Assembly: GCA_963700555.1 (NCBI GenBank)
Contig: CAVOXZ010000011.1
Span: 386,907 to 450,906 of the forward strand
DNA: 64,000 nt
Direction: 5' to 3'
Source of the DNA: an uncultured Chloroflexia bacterium
Lineage (GTDB): Bacteria; Chloroflexota; Limnocylindria; Limnocylindrales; CSP1-4
Shown: positions 6,236-62,516 of the stretch, in pieces
How positions within the stretch are numbered: position 1 is the stretch's first letter
Layout of the letters: every line of letters begins with the position of its first letter
Program-made: the position numbers and the translations under genes
The notes under the pieces: model-generated
The model's input: the letters and a program-made list of their open reading frames with translations, nothing else
Databases searched by the model: none
What the model was told of the DNA's origin: nothing

Positions 6236-7509
6236 CCGACGCCGCATCCCACCTCCCGCATGACGTGACCGACCTCTCGCTCGCCGAGGAGGGCGTGCGC
6301 CGGATCGAGTGGGCGGAGCGCGAGATGCCCGTCCTGCGCCTCATCCGCGAGCGGTTCGAGCGCGAGAAGCCCCTGGCGGGCCTCCGGATCGGCGCCTGCC
6401 TCCACGTCACCACCGAGACCGCGAACCTGATGCGGACCCTGGCAGCGGGCGGCGCCGAGGTGCACCTCGCGGCCTCCAACCCGCTCTCGACCCAGGACTG
6501 GACGGCGGCGGCGCTGGTGGCCGCCTATGGCATCTCGACCTACGCCCGCCGTAGCGAGGACAACGACACCTACTACGCCCACCTCCGCACGGTGGCGGAC
6601 ATCCACCCGCAGATCACCATGGACGACGGCTGCGACCTCGTGTCGCTGCTCCACAAGGAGCGCCGCGACCAGCTGTCCGAGATCCTGGCGGGCACCGAGG
6701 AGACCACGACCGGGGTCATCCGCCTTCGGGCGATGGCCGCCGACGGGGCGCTCGCCTTCCCGGTCGTGGCCGTCAACGAGGCCGAGACCAAGCACCTGTT
6801 CGACAACCGGTACGGGACCGGCCAGTCCACCATCGACGGCATCCTGCGGGCGACGAACATCCTGATCGCCGGCCGCAACGTGGTGGTCGCGGGGTACGGC
6901 TGGGTGGGCCGCGGGATCGCGTCGCGGATGGCCGGCCACGGCGCCCACGTGGCGATCGTGGAGGTCAACCCCGTCCGCGCGATCGAGGCCCTGATGGACG
7001 GGTACCAGGTCATGACCGCCGGCCAGGCCGCGCCCTGGGGCGAGCTGTTCGTGTCCGCGACCGGCAACCTCAACGTGTTCCGACGCGAGCACTTCGCGGC
7101 CATGCGCGACGGCGCGATCCTGGCCAACTCCGGCCACTTCGACGCGGAGCTCGATCTGCCGGCGTTGCGCGCGATGGCCGAGGGCCACGTGCGCGACGTG
7201 CGCCCCAACGTCCAGGAGTTCGACCTCGGCGGCAAGCGTCTCAACCTGATCGCGGAGGGCCGGCTGGTGAACCTCGGCGCGGCCGAGGGCCATCCGGCGG
7301 CCGTGATGGACATGAGCTTCGCGAACCAGGCGCTGGCGGCCGAGTACGTCGCACGCCATCACGCGGAGCTCGAGGCGCGGGTCTACGTCGTGCCCGAGGC
7401 CATCGACGCCGAGGTCGCCCGGCTCAAGCTCGCGGCCATGGGCATCACGCTCGATCCCATGACCCCGGAACAGCTGGCCTACGTGTCCTCCTGGCAGCAA
7501 GGGACCTAG
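6232..7509 (+). CDS. ahcY: Adenosylhomocysteinase
   Basis: 425 aa. NAD-binding GYGWVGRG plus EETTTGV and HFDAE motifs. Similar to SAH hydrolase over the full length. Confidence 0.95.
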
Positions 7510-51251: not shown

Positions 51252-52154
51252 GTGCCGGACGCCGTTCCTGCCAGGGCGATGCTGAGCCGCGTGGAGCGGT
51301 TCACGTCGGTTCCCAGCACCAACGACGAGGTCCGGGAGTGGCTGATGGACGCCACGCCCGAGGTCTGCCTTGCCGTCGCCGACGAGCAGACGGCGGGACG
51401 CGGGCGGTTCGACCGGGCCTGGACGGCGCCCGCCGGTGCCGCGCTGCTGCTCTCGCTCGGCTTCCGGCCCACGTGGCTGGAACCGGACCGCGCCTGGCGG
51501 CTGGCCGCCACCGTCGCGCTCGCGATGTGCGATGCGGCCGAGGACACCGCGGGGCTGCCGGTCGGCGGGATCCGCCTCAAGTGGCCGAACGACCTGGTGG
51601 TCGAGATCGGGGGCCCCAATGCGCTGCTGGCGGGAGAGCTCACCCCCGGAGAAGCGGCCGCGCGCCTCGCCGGACCGCTCGAGCTGCGCAAGGTGGCCGG
51701 GATCCTGGGCGAGACCGACGGCCTCGGGACGGAGAGCCCGACGGTCGTGGTCGGGATCGGGATCAACGCGGACTGGGAGCGGGCCGACTTCCCGCCCGAC
51801 ATCGCGCACTCGATGACCAGCCTCCGCGAGACATCGGGCGGCCGTCCGATCGACCGGGAAGCGCTCCTCGAGTCGTTCCTGGACCACCTCGAGGGCCGGC
51901 TGGATGCCCTGCGGGCAGGCTACTTCGACATCGCTGCATGGCACCAGCGCCAGGTGACGACCGGACGGCTGGTGACGGTCCAGGCCGGCGACGGATCGGC
52001 CTCGGAGCCGCTTCTCGCCGTGGGCGTGGATGCGTCGAGTGGCGCGCTGGTGGTTGAGGACGCGACGGCCACCGGCGGCGAGCGCCGCATCCATGCCGGG
52101 GAGGTTGTGCGGGTCCGGCTGGCGGACGACACGGCACCGATGGGCCAGGTGTAA
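51252..52154 (+). CDS. birA: Biotin--[acetyl-CoA-carboxylase] ligase (group I, no HTH domain)
   Basis: GRGRFDRAW biotin-binding loop, KWPNDL, GIGIN. No N-terminal wHTH domain. Confidence 0.82.
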   Translation: MPDAVPARAMLSRVERFTSVPSTNDEVREWLMDATPEVCLAVADEQTAGRGRFDRAWTAPAGAALLLSLGFRPTWLEPDRAWRLAATVALAMCDAAEDTAGLPVGGIRLKWPNDLVVEIGGPNALLAGELTPGEAAARLAGPLELRKVAGILGETDGLGTESPTVVVGIGINADWERADFPPDIAHSMTSLRETSGGRPIDREALLESFLDHLEGRLDALRAGYFDIAAWHQRQVTTGRLVTVQAGDGSASEPLLAVGVDASSGALVVEDATATGGERRIHAGEVVRVRLADDTAPMGQV

Positions 52155-52158
52155 CGCG

Positions 52159-52806
52159 ATGGCTCGCCCGGTGTTTGGAACTCGTGAGCGTCAGACGGGA
52201 ACCGTCGTCGTCCTCGATCGTGATCGTCATCTCGTCGAGGCCGCGCGCCGGGATCCTGCCCAGTTCGACGCCCTGTACCGGAAGTACCTCGCCCAGGTGT
52301 ACAGCTTCGCCCTCTACGAGCTCGCGGACCATCACGCCGCCGAGGACGCCACCGAGCGCACCTTCCTCCGTGCGCTGGCGGCGCTCCCCCGGTTCCGCGA
52401 GCAGGCCCTCCCCGAGGACGGCCCCGGGGCCTCCTCGTTCCGGGTCTGGCTGTTCCGGATCGCCCGCAACGTGGTGGCCAACGAGCGCCGCGCCCGACGC
52501 CGCCGCCCGGCCGAGTCGCTGGACGTCGCCCTGGGTGCCGGGCTCGCCCTCGCGGACGGCACGGACCTCGAGGCGATGGCCGTGACCCGCGACCAGGCGT
52601 CCGAGGCGCTGCTCGCCCTGCAGTCGCTCCCCGACGACCGGCGCCGGGCCCTCACCCTGCGCTTCGTGGACGAGATGAGCACAGCCGAGATCGCCGGGGT
52701 GCTCGGCCGGTCGGAGGGTGCCGTGCGGGTGCTCATCCACCGGGCGCTTGGTGCCGTCGCCCGCGAGCTGGGTCACGACCGGACCTCGCGCGGATCCGGC
52801 GGGTGA
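52159..52806 (+). CDS. ECF (sigma-70 family, group 4) RNA polymerase sigma factor
   Basis: Region 2 (DAEDATERTFLRA, WLFRIARN) and region 4 (LPDDRRRALTLRFVDEMSTAEIAGVLGRSEGAVRVLIHRA). Confidence 0.85.
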   Translation: MARPVFGTRERQTGTVVVLDRDRHLVEAARRDPAQFDALYRKYLAQVYSFALYELADHHAAEDATERTFLRALAALPRFREQALPEDGPGASSFRVWLFRIARNVVANERRARRRRPAESLDVALGAGLALADGTDLEAMAVTRDQASEALLALQSLPDDRRRALTLRFVDEMSTAEIAGVLGRSEGAVRVLIHRALGAVARELGHDRTSRGSGG

Positions 52807-53414
52807 GCGCGCCGCGACCGCCCGACCTCGAGATGGACCAGGTCCACGCCCTGGTGGCGGACCGGTATCTGGACGCGCTGCTGGCCGCCGGTGACCGGCA
52901 CGCTCTCGACACGCCGGCGGATCCGGCGCTCGATGAGAGGCTCCGTGCGACCGTGCAGGTGCTGCGCCGATCGCTTGTGCGGGTCCACCCCTCCTTCCGG
53001 TTCGAGGAGCGCCTGGCCGGCCGGCTCGCCGACCTCGCCGCTGCCCGGTCGAACGCCGGCGTGGACGCCGGCGAGCGTGGCGCGCTGATCCCGTTCCCGG
53101 GCGGCTCGACACCCGGGCCTGCCCTGGACGCGGACCCGCTGTTGATGGCCATCCTTGCCGGCGACCTCGACCCAGCCGATGAGACCGCGCTCGACCCGAC
53201 CGGGGTGGTGGGCCCCGGACGTCGCCCGCTGCTCGTCGGCGGCGCGATCACGTCGGCCGCGCTGTCGATCGTCGGTGTCGCGATCGTGGCCTGGCGCGCC
53301 TCTCGACCGGCGACCCGGGCCGCGACGGCGACGACGATGGCCCGTGCCGCGCGGGCGGCGCACGCGCGCCGGGCTGCGGCCCTTGCCGCCGCCCTGCCCG
53401 GAGGTTCGGCCTGA
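52803..53414 (+). CDS. Putative anti-sigma factor (single-pass membrane protein)
   Basis: GTGA overlap with the sigma gene. One TM helix (LLVGGAITSAALSIVGVAIVAW). No Zn-binding HxxxCxxC motif. Confidence 0.5.
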   Translation: MSAPRPPDLEMDQVHALVADRYLDALLAAGDRHALDTPADPALDERLRATVQVLRRSLVRVHPSFRFEERLAGRLADLAAARSNAGVDAGERGALIPFPGGSTPGPALDADPLLMAILAGDLDPADETALDPTGVVGPGRRPLLVGGAITSAALSIVGVAIVAWRASRPATRAATATTMARAARAAHARRAAALAAALPGGSA

Positions 53415-54265
53415 TGCCGGTCAAGTTCCCGCAGTTCCGGGCCCGCCGGGACACGATCCCGGACAAGATGTGGACCCGATGCCCCTCCTGCGAGGAGCAG
53501 CTGTTCAACAAGCACCTCGAGAAGGCCATGAACGTGTGCCCGTCCTGCGGGCACCACTTCCGTCTCGCCGCGCCGGTCCGCCTGGGCCAGCTCCTCGACG
53601 AGCACACGTTCGAGGAACGCGATCCCGGGCTGATCAGCGTGGATCCACTCGGGTTCACGGACCAGAAGCCCTACCCGGACCGCCTTGCCGCCGCCCAGCT
53701 CGCGACGGGTCTCAAGGATGCGGCCGTCTGGGGCTACGGGACGATCGAGGGGCAACGCATCGCGATCCTGGTCATGGACTTCGGGTTCATGGGCGGCTCG
53801 ATGGGCGCGGTCGTCGGGGAGAAGGTGGCGCGGGCCGCGGAGGGCGCCCTCGCCGAGCGCCTCCCGCTGGTCATCGTGTCCGCGTCGGGCGGCGCCCGGA
53901 TGCAGGAGGGGACGATGGCGCTGATGCAGCTGGCCAAGACCATGGCCGCCCTGGAGCGGCTGCGCGCGGCCGGCCTGCCGTTCGTGTCGGTGATGAGCGA
54001 TCCGACCACCGGCGGCGTGTTCGCGTCGTACGCGGCGATGGGTGACGTGAACCTCGCCGAGCCCAACGCGCTGATCGGCTTCGCCGGGGCCCGGGTGGGG
54101 GCGGGCACGATCGGCCAGGAGCTCCCTCCGGGGTTCCAGCGCTCCGAGTTCCTGTTCCGGCACGGGTTCGTGGACCGCATCGTGGCTCGCCCCGACCTGC
54201 GAGGCGAGCTCGCCAGGATCCTCCGCTATCTGGCGCCCCGCCCGCTGGAGGCCGGCCGTGGTTGA
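53414..54265 (+). CDS. accD: Acetyl-CoA carboxylase carboxyltransferase beta subunit
   Basis: N-terminal C4 zinc ribbon (CPSCEEQ...CPSCGHH) and FGFMGGSMG. Its ATG shares a base with the anti-sigma stop (TGATG). Confidence 0.9.
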   Translation: MPVKFPQFRARRDTIPDKMWTRCPSCEEQLFNKHLEKAMNVCPSCGHHFRLAAPVRLGQLLDEHTFEERDPGLISVDPLGFTDQKPYPDRLAAAQLATGLKDAAVWGYGTIEGQRIAILVMDFGFMGGSMGAVVGEKVARAAEGALAERLPLVIVSASGGARMQEGTMALMQLAKTMAALERLRAAGLPFVSVMSDPTTGGVFASYAAMGDVNLAEPNALIGFAGARVGAGTIGQELPPGFQRSEFLFRHGFVDRIVARPDLRGELARILRYLAPRPLEAGRG

Positions 54266-55283
54266 CCGCCTGCTGGGCCGCAAGGAGGCTGCCCCCGAGC
54301 CGGCTCCGACCCCCGAGCCTGACACCCCCGCCGACCGCAAGGCGGAGGTCTGGAGCCGGGTCCAGCTGGCCCGCAACCTGCGCCGGCCCCGGATCCTGGA
54401 GTTGCTCGCCGTCATGGCGGACGAGTTCGTCGAGCTCCACGGCGACCGCCTGTTCGGGGACGACGAGGCGATCGTGGCCGGGTTCGCGATCATCGGCGGC
54501 CACCGGGTGGCGGTCGTCGGCCAGCAGAAGGGCGCGGACACGGAGGAGAACGTGCGGCGCAACTTCGGGATGCCCCACCCGGAGGGATACCGCAAGGCGA
54601 TGCGGATCATGGAGCTCGCCGAGCGCTGCCGGCTTCCGGTCGTCACCTTCGTGGACGTGCCGGGTGCGCACCCTGGTCCCGAGAGCGAGGAGCGGGGCAT
54701 CGCGGAGGCGATCGCCCGGTCGGTCGGCCTGATGACTCGGCTCAGGACGCCGATCGTGACCGTGATCACGGGCGAAGGGGGGTCGGGCGGTGCGCTTGCG
54801 ATCGCCGTGGGCGACGTGGTGCTGGCGCTCGAGAACGCCGTGTACTCGGTCATCAGTCCCGAGGGCTGCGCGAGCATCCTGTGGCGGACCACGGACGAGG
54901 CCGCGTCGGCGGCGTTCGCGATGCGCATGACCGCCCAGGACCAGCAGGCGCTCGGCGTCGTCGACCAGGTCATCCCGGAGCCGGCGGGCGGAGCGCACAC
55001 GGATCCCGGCGAGACCGGCCGACGCCTCAAGACCGCCGTCGTGGGCGAGCTCGATCGCCTGACGACCTTGCCGGTGGACGTGCTGCTCGAGCAGCGCTAT
55101 CGCCGCTACCGGGCGCTCGGCCCCTACGTCGAGACCGAGGCGCCGCCCCAGGTCCCGCCGACGCCGCCCCGCCAGGGCCTCGCGGACCGCCTCCGCGGCC
55201 TGATCGAGGCCGGCCAGCGCGCCATGCCCGCGCCCCTCCCGGTCGGGCGCCGCCAGGAACCCCCCGCGCGCGAGGACGTGTAG
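54258..55283 (+). CDS. accA: Acetyl-CoA carboxylase carboxyltransferase alpha subunit
   Basis: Motifs FGMPHPEGYRKA, TFVDVPGA, GEGGSGGALA. Confidence 0.9.
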   Translation: MVDRLLGRKEAAPEPAPTPEPDTPADRKAEVWSRVQLARNLRRPRILELLAVMADEFVELHGDRLFGDDEAIVAGFAIIGGHRVAVVGQQKGADTEENVRRNFGMPHPEGYRKAMRIMELAERCRLPVVTFVDVPGAHPGPESEERGIAEAIARSVGLMTRLRTPIVTVITGEGGSGGALAIAVGDVVLALENAVYSVISPEGCASILWRTTDEAASAAFAMRMTAQDQQALGVVDQVIPEPAGGAHTDPGETGRRLKTAVVGELDRLTTLPVDVLLEQRYRRYRALGPYVETEAPPQVPPTPPRQGLADRLRGLIEAGQRAMPAPLPVGRRQEPPAREDV

Positions 55284-55286
55284 CCC

Positions 55287-56021
55287 ATGCCCGAACCCGG
55301 TCAGCCCACCGACCGCAGTGCCGCCGAGCGCCAGGCGGATCACGCCGCCCTGGCCCGGCTGTCCGAGACGCTCGTGCCCGCGCTCGTCGCCAAGCTCAAC
55401 ACATCCGGCCTCGGCGAGCTGGAGGTCCGCGAGGGCTCGTGGCGGATCCGGCTGCGTCGCCCGGTGGGTCCCGCACCCGCCCGGCGTGAGCGCCCGCGCG
55501 CGGGCGGCCTGATGGGCGGCGCTCCTGCCGTCGCCGGCCCCCTCGTGGCCGGAGAGCCGCCGGAGCCGCGCGATCCCCACCGGGTCTCGGCAACGGCGCC
55601 CGCCGTCGGCGTGTTCCGCACCGTCGGCAAGATCGGCGCTCGTGTCCGGCAGGGCGATCGGATCGCCGTCGTCGACCTGCTGGGCATCGCCCAGCCAGTG
55701 GTGGCACCGGGCGACGGCATCCTCGTGGAGTTCCTCGTCGAGAGCGGCGAGCCCGTCGAGTACGGCGAGGAGGTGGCGGTCGTGGCCGAACCGGTCGTCG
55801 ACCTGAGCGGCGGCCGGCCCGGGGCCGGGCGACCACCGCGGACGGGGAGGGCTGACCATGGTCTCCCGTGTCCTGATCGCCAACCGCGGCGAGATCGCGC
55901 TCCGGATCCTGCGGGCCTGCCGGACCCTCGGCCTCGAGGCGGTCGTCGCCTACTCGGAGGCGGATCGCACGTCGCTGCCCGCGATGATCGCCGACGAGGC
56001 GATCTGCATCGGGCCGGCTGA
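55287..56021 (+). CDS. BCCP-like protein lacking the biotinyl-lysine motif
   Basis: Collinear with AccB, but EAMKM is replaced by DLLGI. The ORF overlaps accC by 164 nt, so the 3' end is uncertain. Confidence 0.65.
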   Translation: MPEPGQPTDRSAAERQADHAALARLSETLVPALVAKLNTSGLGELEVREGSWRIRLRRPVGPAPARRERPRAGGLMGGAPAVAGPLVAGEPPEPRDPHRVSATAPAVGVFRTVGKIGARVRQGDRIAVVDLLGIAQPVVAPGDGILVEFLVESGEPVEYGEEVAVVAEPVVDLSGGRPGAGRPPRTGRADHGLPCPDRQPRRDRAPDPAGLPDPRPRGGRRLLGGGSHVAARDDRRRGDLHRAG

Positions 56022-57228
56022 CGCCCGTCGCTCATACCTCTCGGCCCCCGCGATCATCTCGGCGGCCCTGGTGACCGGCTGCGACGCCATCCACCCGGGC
56101 TACGGCTTCCTGTCGGAGGACGACGCCTTTGCCGACGCCGTGCGCGCCCATGGGCTCACCTTCATCGGACCCAGCGCCACGGTGCTGGAGCGGTTCGCCT
56201 CCAAGGAGGAGACGCGCCGGCTGCTGGCACAGCACGGCCTGCCGACGATCCCGGGCTCGGGGCTCCTGATCGACGAGCAGCAGGCGCTCGACGATGCCGA
56301 GCGGATCGGATACCCGGTGCTCCTCAAGCCGTCCGCCGGCGGCGGCGGCAAGGGGATGCGCATGGTCCGGTCGCCCCGCGAGCTGGCGGCGGTCCTCCCG
56401 ATCTGCCGCTCCGAGGCGAAGGCGGCCTTTGCCGATGACTCGCTGTACCTCGAGAAGTGGCTGGAGGACAACCGGCACGTCGAGATCCAGGTGGCCGTGG
56501 ACCGCTTCGGACGCGGCGTCCATCTCTGGGAGCGTGACTGCTCCGTCCAGCGCCGGCACCAGAAGATCCTCGAGGAGTCGCCCTCGCCGGCGATGACCGC
56601 GGCGGGTCGCGCCGAGCTTGCCGAGCGGGCGATCCGCGCCGTGGTCGCGGCCGGCTACGAGAACGTCGGCACGCTCGAGTTCCTGGTCGACGCCGAGGGC
56701 AGCGCCTACTTCATCGAGATCAACTGCCGGATCCAGGTGGAGCACCCGGTGACCGAGATGCTGACCGGCATCGACCTCGTGGCGCTCCAGATCCGGATCG
56801 CCTCCGGCGAACCCCTGGGCCTCACCCAGGCCGAGATCCCGCAGCGGGGCCACGCGATCGAGTTCCGGATCAACGCCGAGGACGCGGAGCACGACTTCCG
56901 GCCCGGCGCCGGCACGATCGAGCGGTTCAACTCGCCCGGCGGCCCGGGGGTGCGGTTCGACAGCCACGCCTATGCCGGCTACGAGGTTCCGCCCTACTAC
57001 GACTCGCTGCTGGGCAAGCTCGTCGTCTGGGGACCTACCCGCGAGTCGGCGATCGCCCGCGGCCGCGCCGCCCTCGCCGAGCTCGTGATCGACGGCGTCG
57101 TGACGAACGCCCCGATCCATCGCGCCATCCTGTCCTCCGAGCCGTTCCTGGAGGGCCGGTTCACGACGAACCTGCTCGACCGGATCGGCAGCGCCGCCTT
57201 CCTGGCGGCCGAGGAGCGCGTGTCGTGA
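55858..57228 (+). CDS. accC: Acetyl-CoA carboxylase biotin carboxylase subunit
   Basis: Begins VLIANRGEIALRI. ATP-grasp fold, with EINCRIQVEHPVTE. GGGAGGG Shine-Dalgarno sequence upstream. Confidence 0.95.
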   Translation: MVSRVLIANRGEIALRILRACRTLGLEAVVAYSEADRTSLPAMIADEAICIGPADARRSYLSAPAIISAALVTGCDAIHPGYGFLSEDDAFADAVRAHGLTFIGPSATVLERFASKEETRRLLAQHGLPTIPGSGLLIDEQQALDDAERIGYPVLLKPSAGGGGKGMRMVRSPRELAAVLPICRSEAKAAFADDSLYLEKWLEDNRHVEIQVAVDRFGRGVHLWERDCSVQRRHQKILEESPSPAMTAAGRAELAERAIRAVVAAGYENVGTLEFLVDAEGSAYFIEINCRIQVEHPVTEMLTGIDLVALQIRIASGEPLGLTQAEIPQRGHAIEFRINAEDAEHDFRPGAGTIERFNSPGGPGVRFDSHAYAGYEVPPYYDSLLGKLVVWGPTRESAIARGRAALAELVIDGVVTNAPIHRAILSSEPFLEGRFTTNLLDRIGSAAFLAAEERVS

Positions 57229-57310
57229 GGTGCAAGCCTGCACGCAACGGCGAGGCTGCGACGCTCGCCAGCCAGCACACTGCCAGCCGACCCAGTTCTT
57301 GGAGCCAGCC

Positions 57311-57811
57311 GTGACCGATCCCTCCGCCGCCGACGCCTCGCCGGACGCGACGACCGCCCTCGCCGCCCCGTTCTCCGTCAAGGACATCCAGGGCCTGATC
57401 CCGCACCGCTGGCCGTTCCTGCTGGTGGACCGCATCGTGGAGTACGAGCCGGCCGAGAAGCGGATCGTGGGCATCAAGGCCGTGACGGCCACGGAGTGGT
57501 TCTTCCAGGGCCACTTCCCGGGCCTGCCGGTCATGCCGGGCGTCATCCAGATCGAGGCGCTGGCGCAGACGATGGCCGTCTACGTGTCCAGCCAGCCGGG
57601 CTTCGGGGACCGGATCGGGCTGTTCGCCGGGATCGACGAGGTCCGCTTCAAGCGCGTCGTGGTCCCCGGCGACACGCTCCGGCTCGAGATCACGATGGAG
57701 AAGCTGGGCAGCCGGTTCGGCAAGGGCCGGGGCGTGGCGTCGGTGGACGGCGAGGTGGCCTGCGAGGGCCTCCTGTCGTTCGTCATCCCGCCGGCCGGGG
57801 TCCTGCGGTGA
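57311..57811 (+). CDS. fabZ: 3-hydroxyacyl-ACP dehydratase
   Basis: LPHRWPFLLVD and FFQGHFPGLPVMPGV hotdog motifs. GTG at 57311 with a GGAG 6 nt upstream. Confidence 0.9.
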   Translation: MTDPSAADASPDATTALAAPFSVKDIQGLIPHRWPFLLVDRIVEYEPAEKRIVGIKAVTATEWFFQGHFPGLPVMPGVIQIEALAQTMAVYVSSQPGFGDRIGLFAGIDEVRFKRVVVPGDTLRLEITMEKLGSRFGKGRGVASVDGEVACEGLLSFVIPPAGVLR

Positions 57812-58554
57812 CCCGGATCGCCGTCCTGTCCGACGTCCATGGCAACTCGGTTGCGCTCGAGGCCGTGCTCAAGGAGCTCAAGCGCGAGAAGCCGGACTTC
57901 GTGCTCGTCGCCGGCGACCTCGTCCTCAACGGGCCGGACCCGAATGGCGCGATCGACGCGCTGCGTGGTCTCGAGGGCGACGGCGGGATCATCGTGTCCG
58001 GCAACACCGACATCGCGGTCGGGGACTTCGACTACGGAGCGGCGTTCCCGCAGTACCAGGACGGCGTCCCCGACACCGTCACGGCGGCCGCCGAGTGGGC
58101 CCACGACGAGCTGGGTGACGAGCAGCTGGACTGGCTTCGGCGGCTCCCGGCCGAGCGCCGCATCCGGGCCGGGGACGACCAGCTGGTGCTGGTCGTCCAT
58201 GCGTCGCCCGGCTCGCAGACCAGCGGCTTCGACCAGGCGCTGGACGCCAACATCGTCTTCGAGCGAGCCGCGGCGACCGATGCCCGGGTGATCTGCGTCG
58301 GCCACACCCACCTGCCCGAGGTCCGCGATCTCGGCTGGAAGGTGATCGTCAACGATGGATCGGCCGGCTTCGTGTTCGATGGCGACCCGACCGCGTCGTG
58401 GGCGATGGTCACCATCGACGGCGCCGACGTTTCGGCCGAGATCCGGCGCACCGAGTTCGACGTGCTCTCGGTCGCCAACGCGATCAGCGCCCGGGGCCTG
58501 CCGGGTGACGTCTACCGCGCTGCCACGGTGCGGACGGGGAAGCTGGTCCGATGA
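57808..58554 (+). CDS. Metallophosphoesterase (YfcE/MJ0936-like)
   Basis: Motifs IAVLSDVHGN, VAGDLV, GNTD, GHTH. Overlaps fabZ (GTGA) and fabF (ATGA). Confidence 0.78.
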   Translation: MTRIAVLSDVHGNSVALEAVLKELKREKPDFVLVAGDLVLNGPDPNGAIDALRGLEGDGGIIVSGNTDIAVGDFDYGAAFPQYQDGVPDTVTAAAEWAHDELGDEQLDWLRRLPAERRIRAGDDQLVLVVHASPGSQTSGFDQALDANIVFERAAATDARVICVGHTHLPEVRDLGWKVIVNDGSAGFVFDGDPTASWAMVTIDGADVSAEIRRTEFDVLSVANAISARGLPGDVYRAATVRTGKLVR

Positions 58555-59822
58555 GCTGGCAGTGGCCGGCGCGGCCACCGCGCATCGTGATCACCGGGAT
58601 GGGGGCGGTCACAGCGCTGGGACAGGACGTGCGGTCCACCTGGGAGGGGCTGGTCGCCGGCCGATCGGGTGTCGCCCGGATCACCCAGTTCGACCCGGAC
58701 CGGGTGAGCTCGCGGATCGCCGCCGAGGTCAAGGACTTCGACCCGTCTGCCGTGCTGGACCGCAAGGACATGCGCCGGACCGACCGCTACATCCAGTTCG
58801 CGCTGGTCGCCGTGCGCCAGGCGATGGACCAGGCGGGGCTGCCCGGCCGGCTTGACGACGCGCTGGCCGCCCGGACCGGCGTCATCCTCGGATCGGGCCT
58901 GGGCGGCGTCAACACCCTGTTCGACAACGTGCTGCTGATGGCCGAGCGCGGTCCGGACCGGATCTCGCCCTTCTTCATCCCGATGGGCATCGCCAATGTC
59001 GGGGCCGGTCAGATCGCGATCGCGACGGGCGCCATCGGTCCCAACTTCGCGACCGTGTCCGCCTGCGCGAGTGGCGGCCACGCGCTGGGCGAGGCCTGGG
59101 AGACCATCCGCCGCGGCGACGCGGACATGATGTTCGCGGGCGGTGTCGAGGCCGGCGTCCACGAGGCCACCGTCGGCGGGTTCGCCTCGATGAAGGCGCT
59201 GTCCACCCGCAACGACGACCCGGAGGCTGCCTCTCGACCCTTCGACAAGGGCCGGGACGGCTTCGTCATCGGCGAGGGCGGTGGCGTGCTGGTGCTCGAG
59301 ACCCTTGAGCACGCCGAGGCCCGCGGGGCCATCCCCCTCGTGGAGCTGGTCGGTTACGGGGCAACGGCCGATGCCTCCCATATCACCCTGCCGGCGCCCG
59401 GCGGGATGGGCGCGGTCCGGGCCGCCCGGCGCGCCCTCGAGAAGGCCGGCATGGAGCCGGCCGAGATCGTCCACGTCAACGCCCATGCCACCTCCACCCC
59501 CGAGGGCGACAAGGCGGAGCTGCAGGCGATCCGCACCATCTTCGGCGACCACGCACCGGCGGTGTCGGTGGCGGCCCACAAGTCCATGATCGGACACACG
59601 CTGGGCGCGGCCGGAGCCATCGAGGCGATCGCCACCATCTGCGCGATCCGCGAGGGGTGCGTCCCGCCCACGATCAACCTCGTGGACCCCGACGACCTAG
59701 CCGAGGGCCTTGACCTGACGCCCAACACCGCCGTGCACCGGCCGATCCCCGCCGCCATGTCGAACTCGTTCGGCTTCGGTGGGCAGAACACGGCGCTTGT
59801 CTTCCGGAGGTGGGACGGATGA
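58551..59822 (+). CDS. fabF: Beta-ketoacyl-ACP synthase II
   Basis: Active-site SACASG, NAHATST and HKSMIGHTLGAAG motifs. Confidence 0.93.
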   Translation: MSWQWPARPPRIVITGMGAVTALGQDVRSTWEGLVAGRSGVARITQFDPDRVSSRIAAEVKDFDPSAVLDRKDMRRTDRYIQFALVAVRQAMDQAGLPGRLDDALAARTGVILGSGLGGVNTLFDNVLLMAERGPDRISPFFIPMGIANVGAGQIAIATGAIGPNFATVSACASGGHALGEAWETIRRGDADMMFAGGVEAGVHEATVGGFASMKALSTRNDDPEAASRPFDKGRDGFVIGEGGGVLVLETLEHAEARGAIPLVELVGYGATADASHITLPAPGGMGAVRAARRALEKAGMEPAEIVHVNAHATSTPEGDKAELQAIRTIFGDHAPAVSVAAHKSMIGHTLGAAGAIEAIATICAIREGCVPPTINLVDPDDLAEGLDLTPNTAVHRPIPAAMSNSFGFGGQNTALVFRRWDG

Positions 59823-60529
59823 CCGGCAACGAGCCGACGCCTGAGCCCGTGGAGGACCCGATGACCGAGCCCGGCCTGGTTGAGCCCATCGCGGTGGGTC
59901 CCGGCGAGCCCGATGCGGCCACCGGAAACGGCGCGGACGGCGACGCCTCCCCCGCGCACGCGGCAGCCGACCCCGGTCCCGATGCCGCTGTGGCCGCCGC
60001 CGAGCTCGCTCCCGGGCCGTCCGACCCTGCGGCGGACCCGGCCGACGCCTCGCTCCTCGCGCTGGTGGACAGGCTGACCGCGCTCCTGGAGCGGAGCGAC
60101 CTCGGCGAGCTCGAGGTTGCCGCCGGCGACACGACGGTCATCCTGCGGTCGCCGGCCGCGATCGACCGTCCGGCCGCGGCGGCCCAGGCCCCCGGAGCCG
60201 AGCACGGCACCGGTGCCGATGGGGGTCCAGCGACCTCGCCCGTCGTTCCCGATGCCGTCCAGGCGCCCGCCGCGCCCGCCGCGCCCGTCAGGCCGTCGGT
60301 GAAGGCACCCCTCACGGGCATCTTCTACGGGGCGCCGTCTCCCGGGGCCACCGCGTACGTGGCGGTCGGGGACCACGTCGCCGTCGGCCAGATCATCGGC
60401 CTGATCGAGGCCATGAAGCTGTTCAACGAGATCAAGAGCGACCTCGCCGGCCGCGTCGTGCGCGTCTGCGCCGACAATGGGGCGCTGGTCAAGGCCAAGC
60501 AGCCACTGATCGAGGTCGAGCCCGCATGA
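59819..60529 (+). CDS. accB: Acetyl-CoA carboxylase biotin carboxyl carrier protein (canonical)
   Basis: C-terminal biotinyl domain with IEAMKLFNEI. Long Pro/Ala linker. ATGA overlaps on both sides. Confidence 0.85.
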   Translation: MTGNEPTPEPVEDPMTEPGLVEPIAVGPGEPDAATGNGADGDASPAHAAADPGPDAAVAAAELAPGPSDPAADPADASLLALVDRLTALLERSDLGELEVAAGDTTVILRSPAAIDRPAAAAQAPGAEHGTGADGGPATSPVVPDAVQAPAAPAAPVRPSVKAPLTGIFYGAPSPGATAYVAVGDHVAVGQIIGLIEAMKLFNEIKSDLAGRVVRVCADNGALVKAKQPLIEVEPA

Positions 60530-61722
60530 CGTCCCCTGTGGTGCGCTCCGTGCGCCTCACGGGCTGGGGTCGCTACGCCCCTGCCCAGGTGCTCACCAAC
60601 GCCGACCTCGAGCGCATGGTCGACACCTCCGACGAGTGGATCGTGTCCCGCACCGGCATCCGGGAGCGCCGCGTCGCCGCGGCCGACGAGACGACCGCGT
60701 CGATGGCGGCCGTTGCCGGCCTGAGGGCGATCCACACCGCGGGCCTTGTGCCCGAGGACATCGACCTGATCATCCTGGCCACGCTCACGCCCGACTACTG
60801 GATGCCCTCGACCGCCGCGCTGGTCAAGGAGGCGATTGGCAACTCCAGGGCAGCCGCCTTTGACGTTGCGGCCGCGTGCTCCGGCTTCGTCTATGCCTAC
60901 GCCACGGCGTCCGCGTACATCGCGTCGGGAATGGCCCGCAACGCGCTCGTCATCGGCGCCGAGCTGCTCACCCGGTTCCTGGACTACTCGGACCGGGGCA
61001 CCTGCATCCTGTTCGGCGACGGCGCGGGCGCCGTGGTGCTCAGCGGCAGCGACGAGCCGACGGCGCCGGTGGGGATCGAGATGACGACCGAGCCCCAGGG
61101 CGCGTACATGATCTGGCTGCCCGCCGGTGGGTCCAAGAGCCCGCCCTCGGCAGAGACCATCTCGCGAGGGGAGCACAAGATCCGCATGGAGGGCCGCGAG
61201 ACCTACCGGTTCGCGACCAGGACCCTCGCGTCCACCGCCCTCGCGGCCGTCGGCAAGGCCGGCCTCACCCAGGACGACATCGACCTGATCGTCCCGCACC
61301 AGGCGAACATCCGGATCATCGAGGCGGTCGCCAAGGGCCTGGATCTGCCGATGGAGCGGATCTACGTCAACCTGGACCGCTATGGCAACACGTCGGCGGC
61401 GTCGGTCCCGATCGCGCTCGCCGAGGCGGTGAACGAGGGTCGCGTCCAGGTCGGCGACAAGATCGTGTTCGTGGCCTTCGGTGCCGGCTTCACGTCCGGC
61501 GCCGTGGCGATGGAGTGGACCGCCGATCCGGCCCGCGGCCGCGATGCGGACGATGCGGTCCCTGCGGCCGACGTCCGGATCCGCCTGCCGCAGGACTGGG
61601 ACTCCGTGGATCCCATCCCGCCTGCGCTGGCCGAGATCCTCGCAAGGCCGTTGCCCGGCCACATGGACCTCTCGGACGTCGCGCCCGGCGAGCCCGAGCA
61701 CGCCCACCAGCCCACGCACTGA
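60526..61722 (+). CDS. fabH: Beta-ketoacyl-ACP synthase III, with a C-terminal extension of about 64 aa
   Basis: Motifs AAACSGF, HQANIRI, GNTSAASVP. Extra sequence follows AMEW. Confidence 0.88.
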   Translation: MTSPVVRSVRLTGWGRYAPAQVLTNADLERMVDTSDEWIVSRTGIRERRVAAADETTASMAAVAGLRAIHTAGLVPEDIDLIILATLTPDYWMPSTAALVKEAIGNSRAAAFDVAAACSGFVYAYATASAYIASGMARNALVIGAELLTRFLDYSDRGTCILFGDGAGAVVLSGSDEPTAPVGIEMTTEPQGAYMIWLPAGGSKSPPSAETISRGEHKIRMEGRETYRFATRTLASTALAAVGKAGLTQDDIDLIVPHQANIRIIEAVAKGLDLPMERIYVNLDRYGNTSAASVPIALAEAVNEGRVQVGDKIVFVAFGAGFTSGAVAMEWTADPARGRDADDAVPAADVRIRLPQDWDSVDPIPPALAEILARPLPGHMDLSDVAPGEPEHAHQPTH

Positions 61723-61766: not shown

Positions 61767-62516
61767 ATGCTCGATCTCAGCAACAAGGTCGCTCTCGTCA
61801 CCGGCGGGTCGCGCGGCATCGGCCGCGCGGTCTCGCTGATGCTCGCCCGGCAGGGCGCCAACGTGGCCTTCATCGATCGCGAGGCGTGCCTCATCGACGA
61901 CCACACCAAGGGCGATGTGGAGGCGATGGGCCGCCGGTCCGTGTGCGTGGGCGGCGATGTCACCAGCCCGGCGTCGTGCGCCGAGACGGTCGAGGCCACG
62001 CTCAAGGAGTTCGGGCGCATCGACATCCTGGTCAACAACGCCGGGATCACGCGTGACGACCTTGCCATGCGGATGAGCGACCAGGCGTGGGCAGACGTCA
62101 TCAACGTCAATCTCACGGGCTCCTTCTACATGGCCCGGGCCGTCCTCCGCCCGATGCTCAAGCAGCGCTCCGGACGCATCGTCAACATGTCCAGCGTGTC
62201 CGGGCAGATGGGCAACGCGGGCCAGGCGAACTACTCGGCCTCGAAGGCCGGGCTGATCGGCCTCACCAAGGCCCTCGCCCGAGAGGTCGCCTCGCGGGGC
62301 ATCACGGTCAATGCCATCGCCCCCGGGTTCGTGGTCACGGAGCTCACGGACACGCTCCCGGACGGCGTGAAGGATGCGATCAAGGGCGCCACCCCGCTGG
62401 GCCGCTTCGCGACCCCCGACGAGATCGCTGCCGCCGTCACCTTCCTCGTCTCGGACGAGGCCGCCTACATCACGGGCCAGGTGCTCGGGGTGGACGGTGG
62501 TCTCGCGATGATGTAA
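61767..62516 (+). CDS. fabG: 3-oxoacyl-ACP reductase
   Basis: SDR motifs TGGSRGIG, NNAG, YSASK. GGAGGAAGG Shine-Dalgarno sequence. Confidence 0.88.
   Translation: MLDLSNKVALVTGGSRGIGRAVSLMLARQGANVAFIDREACLIDDHTKGDVEAMGRRSVCVGGDVTSPASCAETVEATLKEFGRIDILVNNAGITRDDLAMRMSDQAWADVINVNLTGSFYMARAVLRPMLKQRSGRIVNMSSVSGQMGNAGQANYSASKAGLIGLTKALAREVASRGITVNAIAPGFVVTELTDTLPDGVKDAIKGATPLGRFATPDEIAAAVTFLVSDEAAYITGQVLGVDGGLAMM

Follow-up and report, generated by a model that had tools for sequence, protein, structure and literature searches.

Between accA and accC of an uncultured Chloroflexia bacterium lies a gene, here called X, that encodes a paralogue of the biotin carboxyl carrier protein (BCCP, AccB) with glycine in place of the lysine to which biotin is attached. 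The gene is part of a 64,000-nucleotide stretch of assembly GCA_963700555.1 (contig CAVOXZ010000011.1, positions 386,907 to 450,906), hereafter the window. As judged from alignments, conserved loci and substitution rates, X is predicted to be a functional protein that is retained under selection and unable to accept biotin. It probably organizes or stabilizes the heteromeric acetyl-CoA carboxylase (ACC), acting as a subunit that resembles the plant BADC proteins and arose separately from them. A preliminary description made from the sequence had reported that an accD-accA-x-accC operon contains a lysine-less BCCP paralogue and that a normal accB follows 4 kb further on; alignments and the conserved loci of related genomes bear this arrangement out.

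The architecture of X is that of AccB, with an N-terminal domain, a linker and a biotinyl-type domain. The N-terminal module consists of a conserved leader peptide, a helix (residues 12–40) and a β-hairpin (residues 44–57, LGELEVREGxWRIRLRR), and is homologous to the α/β/β N-domain of AccB, the alignment starting at residue 27 of E. coli BCCP; the LGELEV strand is common to the N-domains of X and AccB. An AlphaFold2 model places the C-terminal barrel (residues 100–170) at a predicted local distance difference test score (pLDDT) above 90 and the helix and hairpin of the N-terminal module at approximately 78, with the intervening linker disordered. By Foldseek, the PDB structure that matches X best is 1bdo, a biotinyl domain from E. 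coli, with a root mean square deviation of 1.1 Å. Sequence profiles point the same way. The Pfam family PF00364 (Biotin_lipoyl) matches residues 104–165 with 23.0 bits, above its gathering threshold of 22.1, and is assigned to most homologues of X as well; with this score and its barrel-sandwich hybrid fold, X belongs to the biotin/lipoyl attachment domain superfamily. For a profile built from 23 X sequences, the top-ranking PDB sequence is 4hr7_B, the full-length BCCP of E. coli (E 2.7e-15), and the alignment spans both domains (BCCP residues 27–175).

What X lacks are the features that make AccB a biotin carrier. When X is aligned with the AccB of E. coli and that of the window, Gly133 (GGC, 55683–55685) fills the biotinyl-lysine column, the hairpin having D-L-L-G-I where AccB has E-A-M-K-M/L. 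Nothing in X aligns with the AccB thumb (YxxPSPxA), a protruding element of 8 residues that is characteristic of ACC-type BCCP and packs against biotin. The alignment with 4hr7_B has the same two differences, lysine to glycine and the missing thumb. The equivalog profile for BCCP, TIGR00531, covers residues 32–166 of X (E 4e-7) with 30.5 bits, far under its cutoff of 115.2, and gives the canonical AccB of the window 104.9 bits. X therefore departs from AccB in its acceptor lysine, its thumb and its equivalog score, and retains the three-part layout. The hairpin stretch VDLLGIxQDVxAPxDG is among the best-conserved segments of the protein. These results uphold several claims of the preliminary description at once: that the reading frame is collinear with BCCP, N-terminus included; that its biotinylation site reads D-L-L-G-I with glycine in the lysine column; and that a normal BCCP (IEAMKLF) is encoded at 59819–60529 between fabF and fabH, where we find it both as an open reading frame (ORF) and by Pfam and TIGR00531 searches.

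To survey the family, we searched 5.8 billion proteins (606 matches to X, the best 120 of which were examined) and, with a hidden Markov model, 1.84 billion cluster representatives, which were grouped at 50% identity and the best 150 examined for the hairpin; 653 such clusters match the X profile at E ≤ 1e-10. Glycine occupies the lysine column in all 120 close homologues and in each of the 144 representatives that cover the hairpin, that is, in 264 of 264 alignable homologues, and the hairpin follows the pattern V-(D/E)-(L/V/M/C)-L-G-(I/V). Lysine in orthologues, which would have spoken against the reading, is thus replaced by an invariant glycine, and no lysine-retaining intermediates were found among the best 150 of the 653 clusters.

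We scanned 185,579 species genomes twice, the second time with divergent members of the family. The scans place X in approximately 110 Chloroflexota species (loci L001–L061 and L081–L133), all known from metagenome-assembled genomes (MAGs) of Limnocylindria type, and the named homologues among the best 120 of the 606 protein matches are Candidatus Limnocylindrales or Chloroflexi. A few short contigs with other taxon labels also carry X and are probably mis-binned. Outside the Limnocylindria, the second scan returned no members of the family beyond Chloroflexota MAGs and these small odd-labelled contigs, and the next hits below the family were canonical AccB proteins. The same lysine-less gene at the accA–accC junction, for which the preliminary description had proposed a search in relatives, is accordingly a standing feature of the group. 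The X ORF is intact in most of the roughly 110 genomes; broken copies come mostly from long-read MFD MAGs in which neighbouring genes are split as well.

Gene order is stable as well. The common order in the recovered loci is accD-accA-X-accC-fabZ-(phosphoesterase)-fabF-accB-fabH; it is kept while the identity of accC drops to ~65%, and a canonical accB with the reading (L/M)IEAMKL(F/Y)N always accompanies X. In the window, 3 nt separate the stop codon of accA from the start codon of X, and in most intact loci X ends within −4 to +5 nt of the accC start codon. Most lineages have X directly before accC, the stop and start codons either overlapping or 1–3 nt apart. One deep subclade of the Limnocylindria carries an insert of ~1 kb, a fabD gene (GHSVGEY motif), between X and accC (L104, L108–L113, L115–L119, L122–L124, L126, L127, L131–L133 and L135; in L115 at 6330–7382). 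These loci have no phosphoesterase between fabZ and fabF, and X still adjoins accA. Because fabD separates X from accC there, the invariant adjacency is that of accA and X, not of X and accC.

The folded parts of X are clearly under purifying selection. Ratios of nonsynonymous to synonymous substitution rates (dN/dS) were calculated by the Nei–Gojobori method (NG86) from codon alignments of 33 loci (Table 1). For X as a whole they are comparable to those of canonical accB, in answer to the purifying-selection check that the preliminary description had called for; within X, constraint is evident in the two folded domains and weakest in the linker.

A comparison with plants offers a framework for what such a protein might do. 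The BADC proteins are BCCP homologues, 25–30% identical to BCCP, that have no biotinylation motif; they are described as non-catalytic subunits that bind biotin carboxylase (BC) and BCCP, and have been called ‘unique to the plant htACCase’ (PMC11926652, 2025). X fits the operational definition of a BADC, a motif-less BCCP homologue that coexists with a functional BCCP in a heteromeric ACC, as Arabidopsis BADC1–3 do. There are differences in setting: BADCs are nuclear-encoded and plastid-targeted, and their expression is under separate control (by WRI1, for instance; bioRxiv 10.1101/634550), whereas X sits inside the acc operon of one bacterial class and is apparently co-translated with accA and accC. 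Since X is confined to that class, we take it as an analogue of BADC and not as a member of its family; a convergent, independent origin is inferred here from distribution. The preliminary description knew of no bacterial equivalent, and in the searchable literature, the coverage of which is incomplete, we likewise came upon no report of a BCCP paralogue without the lysine in bacteria. It is reasonable to regard X as a bacterial non-catalytic carrier paralogue and to read its function as BADC-like.

A model for the role of X can be drawn from what its two modules do in AccB. The first ~30 residues of E. coli BCCP form an α/β/β motif; in a published model these motifs assemble into an oligomeric barrel that makes up the core of active ACC tubes, and the biotinyl domain docks on BC (PMC11160672). 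Because both AccB modules are kept, X could co-oligomerize with AccB and fill docking sites on BC. Made in step with AccA and AccC through co-translation, X would enter the ACC complex via the contacts used by AccB; its N-terminal module would co-oligomerize with those of AccB, and its barrel would dock on biotin carboxylase and shuttle no carboxyl groups. Carrier-shaped and devoid of a swinging arm, X would organize or stabilize the assembly of BC, BCCP and carboxyltransferase (CT), and would set the ratio of active carriers within it.

The most serious competitor of this model, which we nevertheless regard as unlikely, is that X is a competitive decoy, a pure negative regulator that occupies sites on BC or on the AccB oligomer and lowers ACC flux with no part in assembly. 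Such a protein, too, would keep the shape of BCCP and dispense with carrier function, and the hairpin of X is strongly conserved, as though it were still docking somewhere; for plant BADC the idea goes back to Salie et al. (2016), as relayed in PMC11926652 and bioRxiv 10.1101/634550. However, an inhibitor that is translated stoichiometrically with its target enzyme gives no obvious regulatory handle, and in plants the inhibitor model is disputed, being contested by a model in which BADC is an assembly factor, or ‘glue’ (PMC11926652). The sequence data as such would fit a scaffold and an inhibitor alike. As X is embedded in an operon with accA and accC, a constitutive scaffold, or glue, role appears more likely than that of a conditional inhibitor.

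The linker bears on a further alternative and on the partnership of X with AccB. In the clade of the window it is arginine-rich (median isoelectric point 11.3, ~7 Arg). The canonical AccB of the window, in turn, begins with an acidic Pro/Ala-rich extension of ~80 residues (59819–60058, motif MTEPGLVEPxAVGPGEP); this extension measures 35–80 residues in the window’s clade and little or nothing of it is present in deep clades. Across 63 loci, the net charges of X linker and AccB extension are anticorrelated (Spearman −0.55, a raw coefficient that ignores shared phylogeny), with clade pairs of +5/−10.5, +3/−4, +1/−3 and +0.5/−2.5, and the linker charge falls to ~0 in deeper clades. This anticorrelation hints at a physical pairing of X and AccB. 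An Arg-rich segment beside an AccB-type N-domain, the domain implicated in accBC autoregulation in E. coli, could also denote a nucleic acid-binding autoregulator of the acc/fab cluster. The linker has a pI of ~11 and ~7 Arg, X has ~19 Arg in total, and the N-terminus of E. coli AccB has been discussed as a regulator of expression (PMC11160672). We hold this to be quite improbable: no part of X is less constrained than the linker (dN/dS 0.67), which in the deep clades carries a charge of ~0; the conserved biotinyl-type barrel would be left unexplained; and Pfam and NCBIfam profile searches detected no DNA- or RNA-binding domain in X.

The 3′ end of X requires a correction. The listed ORF (55287–56021, + strand) encodes 244 residues and overlaps accC, whose ATG is at 55858, by 164 nt; in another frame a TGA (55853–55855) lies 2 nt before that ATG. 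Both observations had been made in the preliminary description, which suspected a mis-read C-terminus, and the coordinates agree with it. DNA alignments against the two closest relatives (loci L161 and L001) show that the window is one nucleotide short at 55827/55828, within a G/C run. In locus L161, which carries a protein 92% identical to X (P0001), the additional base is present and the frame closes at a stop codon. With the base restored, the protein ends in ATTADGEG followed by the TGA, and homologues among the best 120 of the 606 matches are nearly all 180–200 residues long and end in DGEG or similar. Because a base is missing relative to the closest relatives and the other frame supplies this homologue-like end, we take the product of X to be ~189 residues long (55287–55855); residues 182–244 of the listed ORF, its last 63 codons, are out of frame. 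The frameshift touches just an acidic, non-conserved tail of 8 residues. An assembly error is plausible, since many of the long-read MAGs compared show scattered frameshifts across several genes. A programmed frameshift was considered and is unnecessary, given the extra base and in-frame stop in L161. Elsewhere in the family, X has lost its stop codon in L014 (8001–9941) and is fused in frame to accC, and X and/or its neighbours are frameshifted in L010, L049, L051, L055, L056, L059, L120, L128 and L130, several of which are long-read MFD MAGs; most simply, the fusion and these frameshifts are assembly indels like the 1-nt gap of the window.

The frameshift near the 3′ end of the window copy, and the faster evolution of X compared with accC and accA, are what one would cite for X being a decaying accB duplicate or pseudogene, or for the lysine-to-glycine change being a sequencing artefact of the window. 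Conservation, dN/dS and the invariant glycine rule this reading out for practical purposes, and it keeps a negligible probability: the ORF is intact in most of the ~110 species-level genomes, the glycine recurs in all 264 alignable homologues, the frameshift is confined to the tail and absent from the 92%-identical copy, and overall dN/dS is 0.21–0.42. With values of 0.26 and 0.36, the folded domains are constrained, so X is not a decaying duplicate. Hardly more credible is that X is still a carrier or acceptor, whether of some other modification or through another residue, as the strong conservation of barrel and hairpin might suggest: glycine offers no attachment chemistry, the C-terminal domain averages 0.2 Lys, and an alternative attachment site is unlikely because no conserved lysine could serve, the sole near-invariant one (K36) lying in the N-terminal helix and being Arg in the divergent L060.

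Lysine is scarce throughout X. Over 33 orthologues the protein averages 1.5 Lys and 18.8 Arg, with ~6 Lys in the AccB of the same genomes, and the acidic barrel contains 0.2 Lys per domain compared with 5.0 in the AccB barrel. Stray acceptor lysines may have been selected against, or the scarcity may simply be a product of GC-driven drift.

Several points weigh against X as an organizing subunit of ACC. Its binding to AccC and AccB is suggested by homology and gene order only. The covariation of charge between X and AccB may be a clade effect. In the subclade with the fabD insert X is separated from accC, its constant neighbour being accA. X also diverges faster than its neighbours, with 35–45% identity where accC has 65–78%, and all carriers of X are uncultured MAGs.

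Relative to canonical AccB (E. coli AccB, 4hr7/1bdo; TIGR00531), with which it has the three-part architecture in common, X thus differs by the replacement of lysine with glycine and by deletion of the thumb. Its linker is rich in arginine, whereas that of canonical AccB is rich in Ala and Pro, and X has an extra conserved N-terminal peptide of ~25 residues. X fills the slot directly 5′ of accC that is held by accB in many bacteria, and it has in common with proteobacterial AccB a C-terminal G-x-x-VEYGE motif, at which the AccB of the window has GALVKAKQP. The identity of X to the AccB of its own genome and to foreign AccB proteins is alike, ~28–36%. Among other non-catalytic partners of biotin-dependent carboxylases, the actinobacterial ε subunits (AccE/PccE) are not BCCP-like and belong to fused BC-BCCP α/β carboxylases. 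Their analogy with X is one of function only: they are summarized in PMC11926652 as small ‘glue’ subunits for assembly and activation of a bacterial biotin carboxylase complex.

Two further families of lysine-less BCCP-like proteins were observed. The first, in Ktedonobacteria, has the hairpin I-Q-S-L-N-V-I-N, with lysine replaced by Asn in each of the best 120 of its 973 proteins (E ≤ 1e-5); examples are L139 5926–6459 (Dictyobacter aurantiacus S27), L159 4281–4811 and L160 5839–6483. This family, which occurs in the cultured genera Dictyobacter, Ktedonosporobacter and Tengunoibacter, differs from X by having Asn instead of Gly and by keeping a thumb-like insert; unlike X, its gene adjoins not acc genes but an xseA-like gene, as read from the translation. 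PGAP names the protein ‘acetyl-CoA carboxylase biotin carboxyl carrier protein’. The second family, of Armatimonadota type, comprises 12 clusters (proteins P0393–P0404) with the hairpin A-L-G-I-A-N, in which lysine is replaced by Gly and the thumb is absent. In an Armatimonadota MAG (L147, 5803–6216) its gene stands upstream of a small prepilin-like ORF, read from the sequence, which is followed by accC. This family resembles X in having Gly in the lysine column, no thumb and a position near accC, and hhalign gives 113 for X against it and 91.7 for X against its own AccB family. Neither family turned up in the literature searched. Look-alikes of the carrier that have no acceptor lysine may therefore recur among bacteria. 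More tentatively, and with clearly less confidence than in the organizing role of X, one might imagine that unrecognized pseudo-BCCP subunits recur in bacterial ACC, in at least three families convergent with BADC, X being an obligatory one that would pair with AccB through its N-terminal module and the charged tails.

In the window, X is embedded in a tight cluster of fatty acid synthesis genes on the + strand at 53.4–62.5 kb (Table 1), in which the ATG of canonical accB overlaps the TGA of fabF. In 74 of 83 related loci, genes for a biotin protein ligase and an ECF-type sigma factor precede the cluster in the same orientation, which suggests that a conserved module serves the cluster in regulation and cofactor loading. 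Judged by position alone, the 203-residue ORF that follows them in the window is a possible anti-sigma factor. Most Limnocylindria loci also retain a gene for a calcineurin-like phosphoesterase, odd company for a fab cluster, between fabZ and fabF. A scan for promoters and terminators over 51–63 kb of the window returned nothing exceeding shuffled expectation.

Table 1. Features of X and of its surroundings in the window, with dN/dS values
Feature	Coordinates	Strand	dN/dS	Basis or remark
Biotin protein ligase (BPL_LplA_LipB family)	51252..52154	+		Pfam; upstream of cluster
ECF-type sigma factor	52030..52806	+		Upstream of accD
203-residue ORF	52803..53414	+		No Pfam match; directly 5′ of accD
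accD (CT β, Zn ribbon)	53414..54265	+		Pfam
accA (CT α)	54258..55283	+	0.21	Pfam
X, lysine-less BCCP paralogue, corrected coding sequence, ~189 residues	55287..55855	+	0.21–0.42	One base restored at 55827/55828
X, N-terminal module, residues 1–60	55287..55466	+	0.26–0.29	AlphaFold2 pLDDT ~78; alignment with E. coli BCCP
X, Arg-rich disordered linker, residues 61–100 (RRERPR...PRDPHR)	55467..55586	+	0.67	pLDDT <50
X, biotinyl-type β-barrel, residues 101–166	55587..55784	+	0.36	Pfam PF00364; pLDDT >90
X, hairpin tip D-L-L-G-I in place of E-A-M-K-M/L	55674..55688	+		Alignment
Spurious out-of-frame 3′ extension of listed ORF	55856..56021	+		Reaches 164 nt into accC
accC (biotin carboxylase, all three BC domains)	55858..57228	+	0.14	Pfam
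fabZ (FabA-like dehydratase)	57230..57811	+		Pfam
Calcineurin-like metallophosphoesterase	57826..58554	+		Between fabZ and fabF
fabF	58551..59822	+		
Canonical accB (IEAMKLFNEI, thumb present)	59819..60529 (ORF from 59810)	+	0.29–0.36	Between fabF and fabH
fabH	60526..61722	+		
fabG-like short-chain reductase	61767..62516	+		Assigned from TGGSRGIG and YSASK motifs

At present, IMG and PGAP label X-type proteins ‘acetyl-CoA carboxylase biotin carboxyl carrier protein’ or ‘biotin/lipoyl-containing protein’. Because the acceptor lysine is absent, the BCCP annotation is wrong for these proteins, and such labels can mislead metabolic reconstructions. X should be of interest to the enzymology of ACC and of biotin. 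Its hosts are uncultured soil and freshwater Limnocylindria; the IQSLNVIN family has cultured hosts that are open to genetics, and the X system is a minimal four-plus-one-gene set that could be reconstituted in E. coli to address the question of inhibitor versus scaffold. In the ACC literature consulted, non-catalytic look-alikes of the BADC type are treated as a plant peculiarity, and whether they inhibit or glue is still argued. If the reading of X given here is true, an independent bacterial dummy carrier, present class-wide and encoded within the acc operon, would point to a general solution for organizing or tuning heteromeric ACC.

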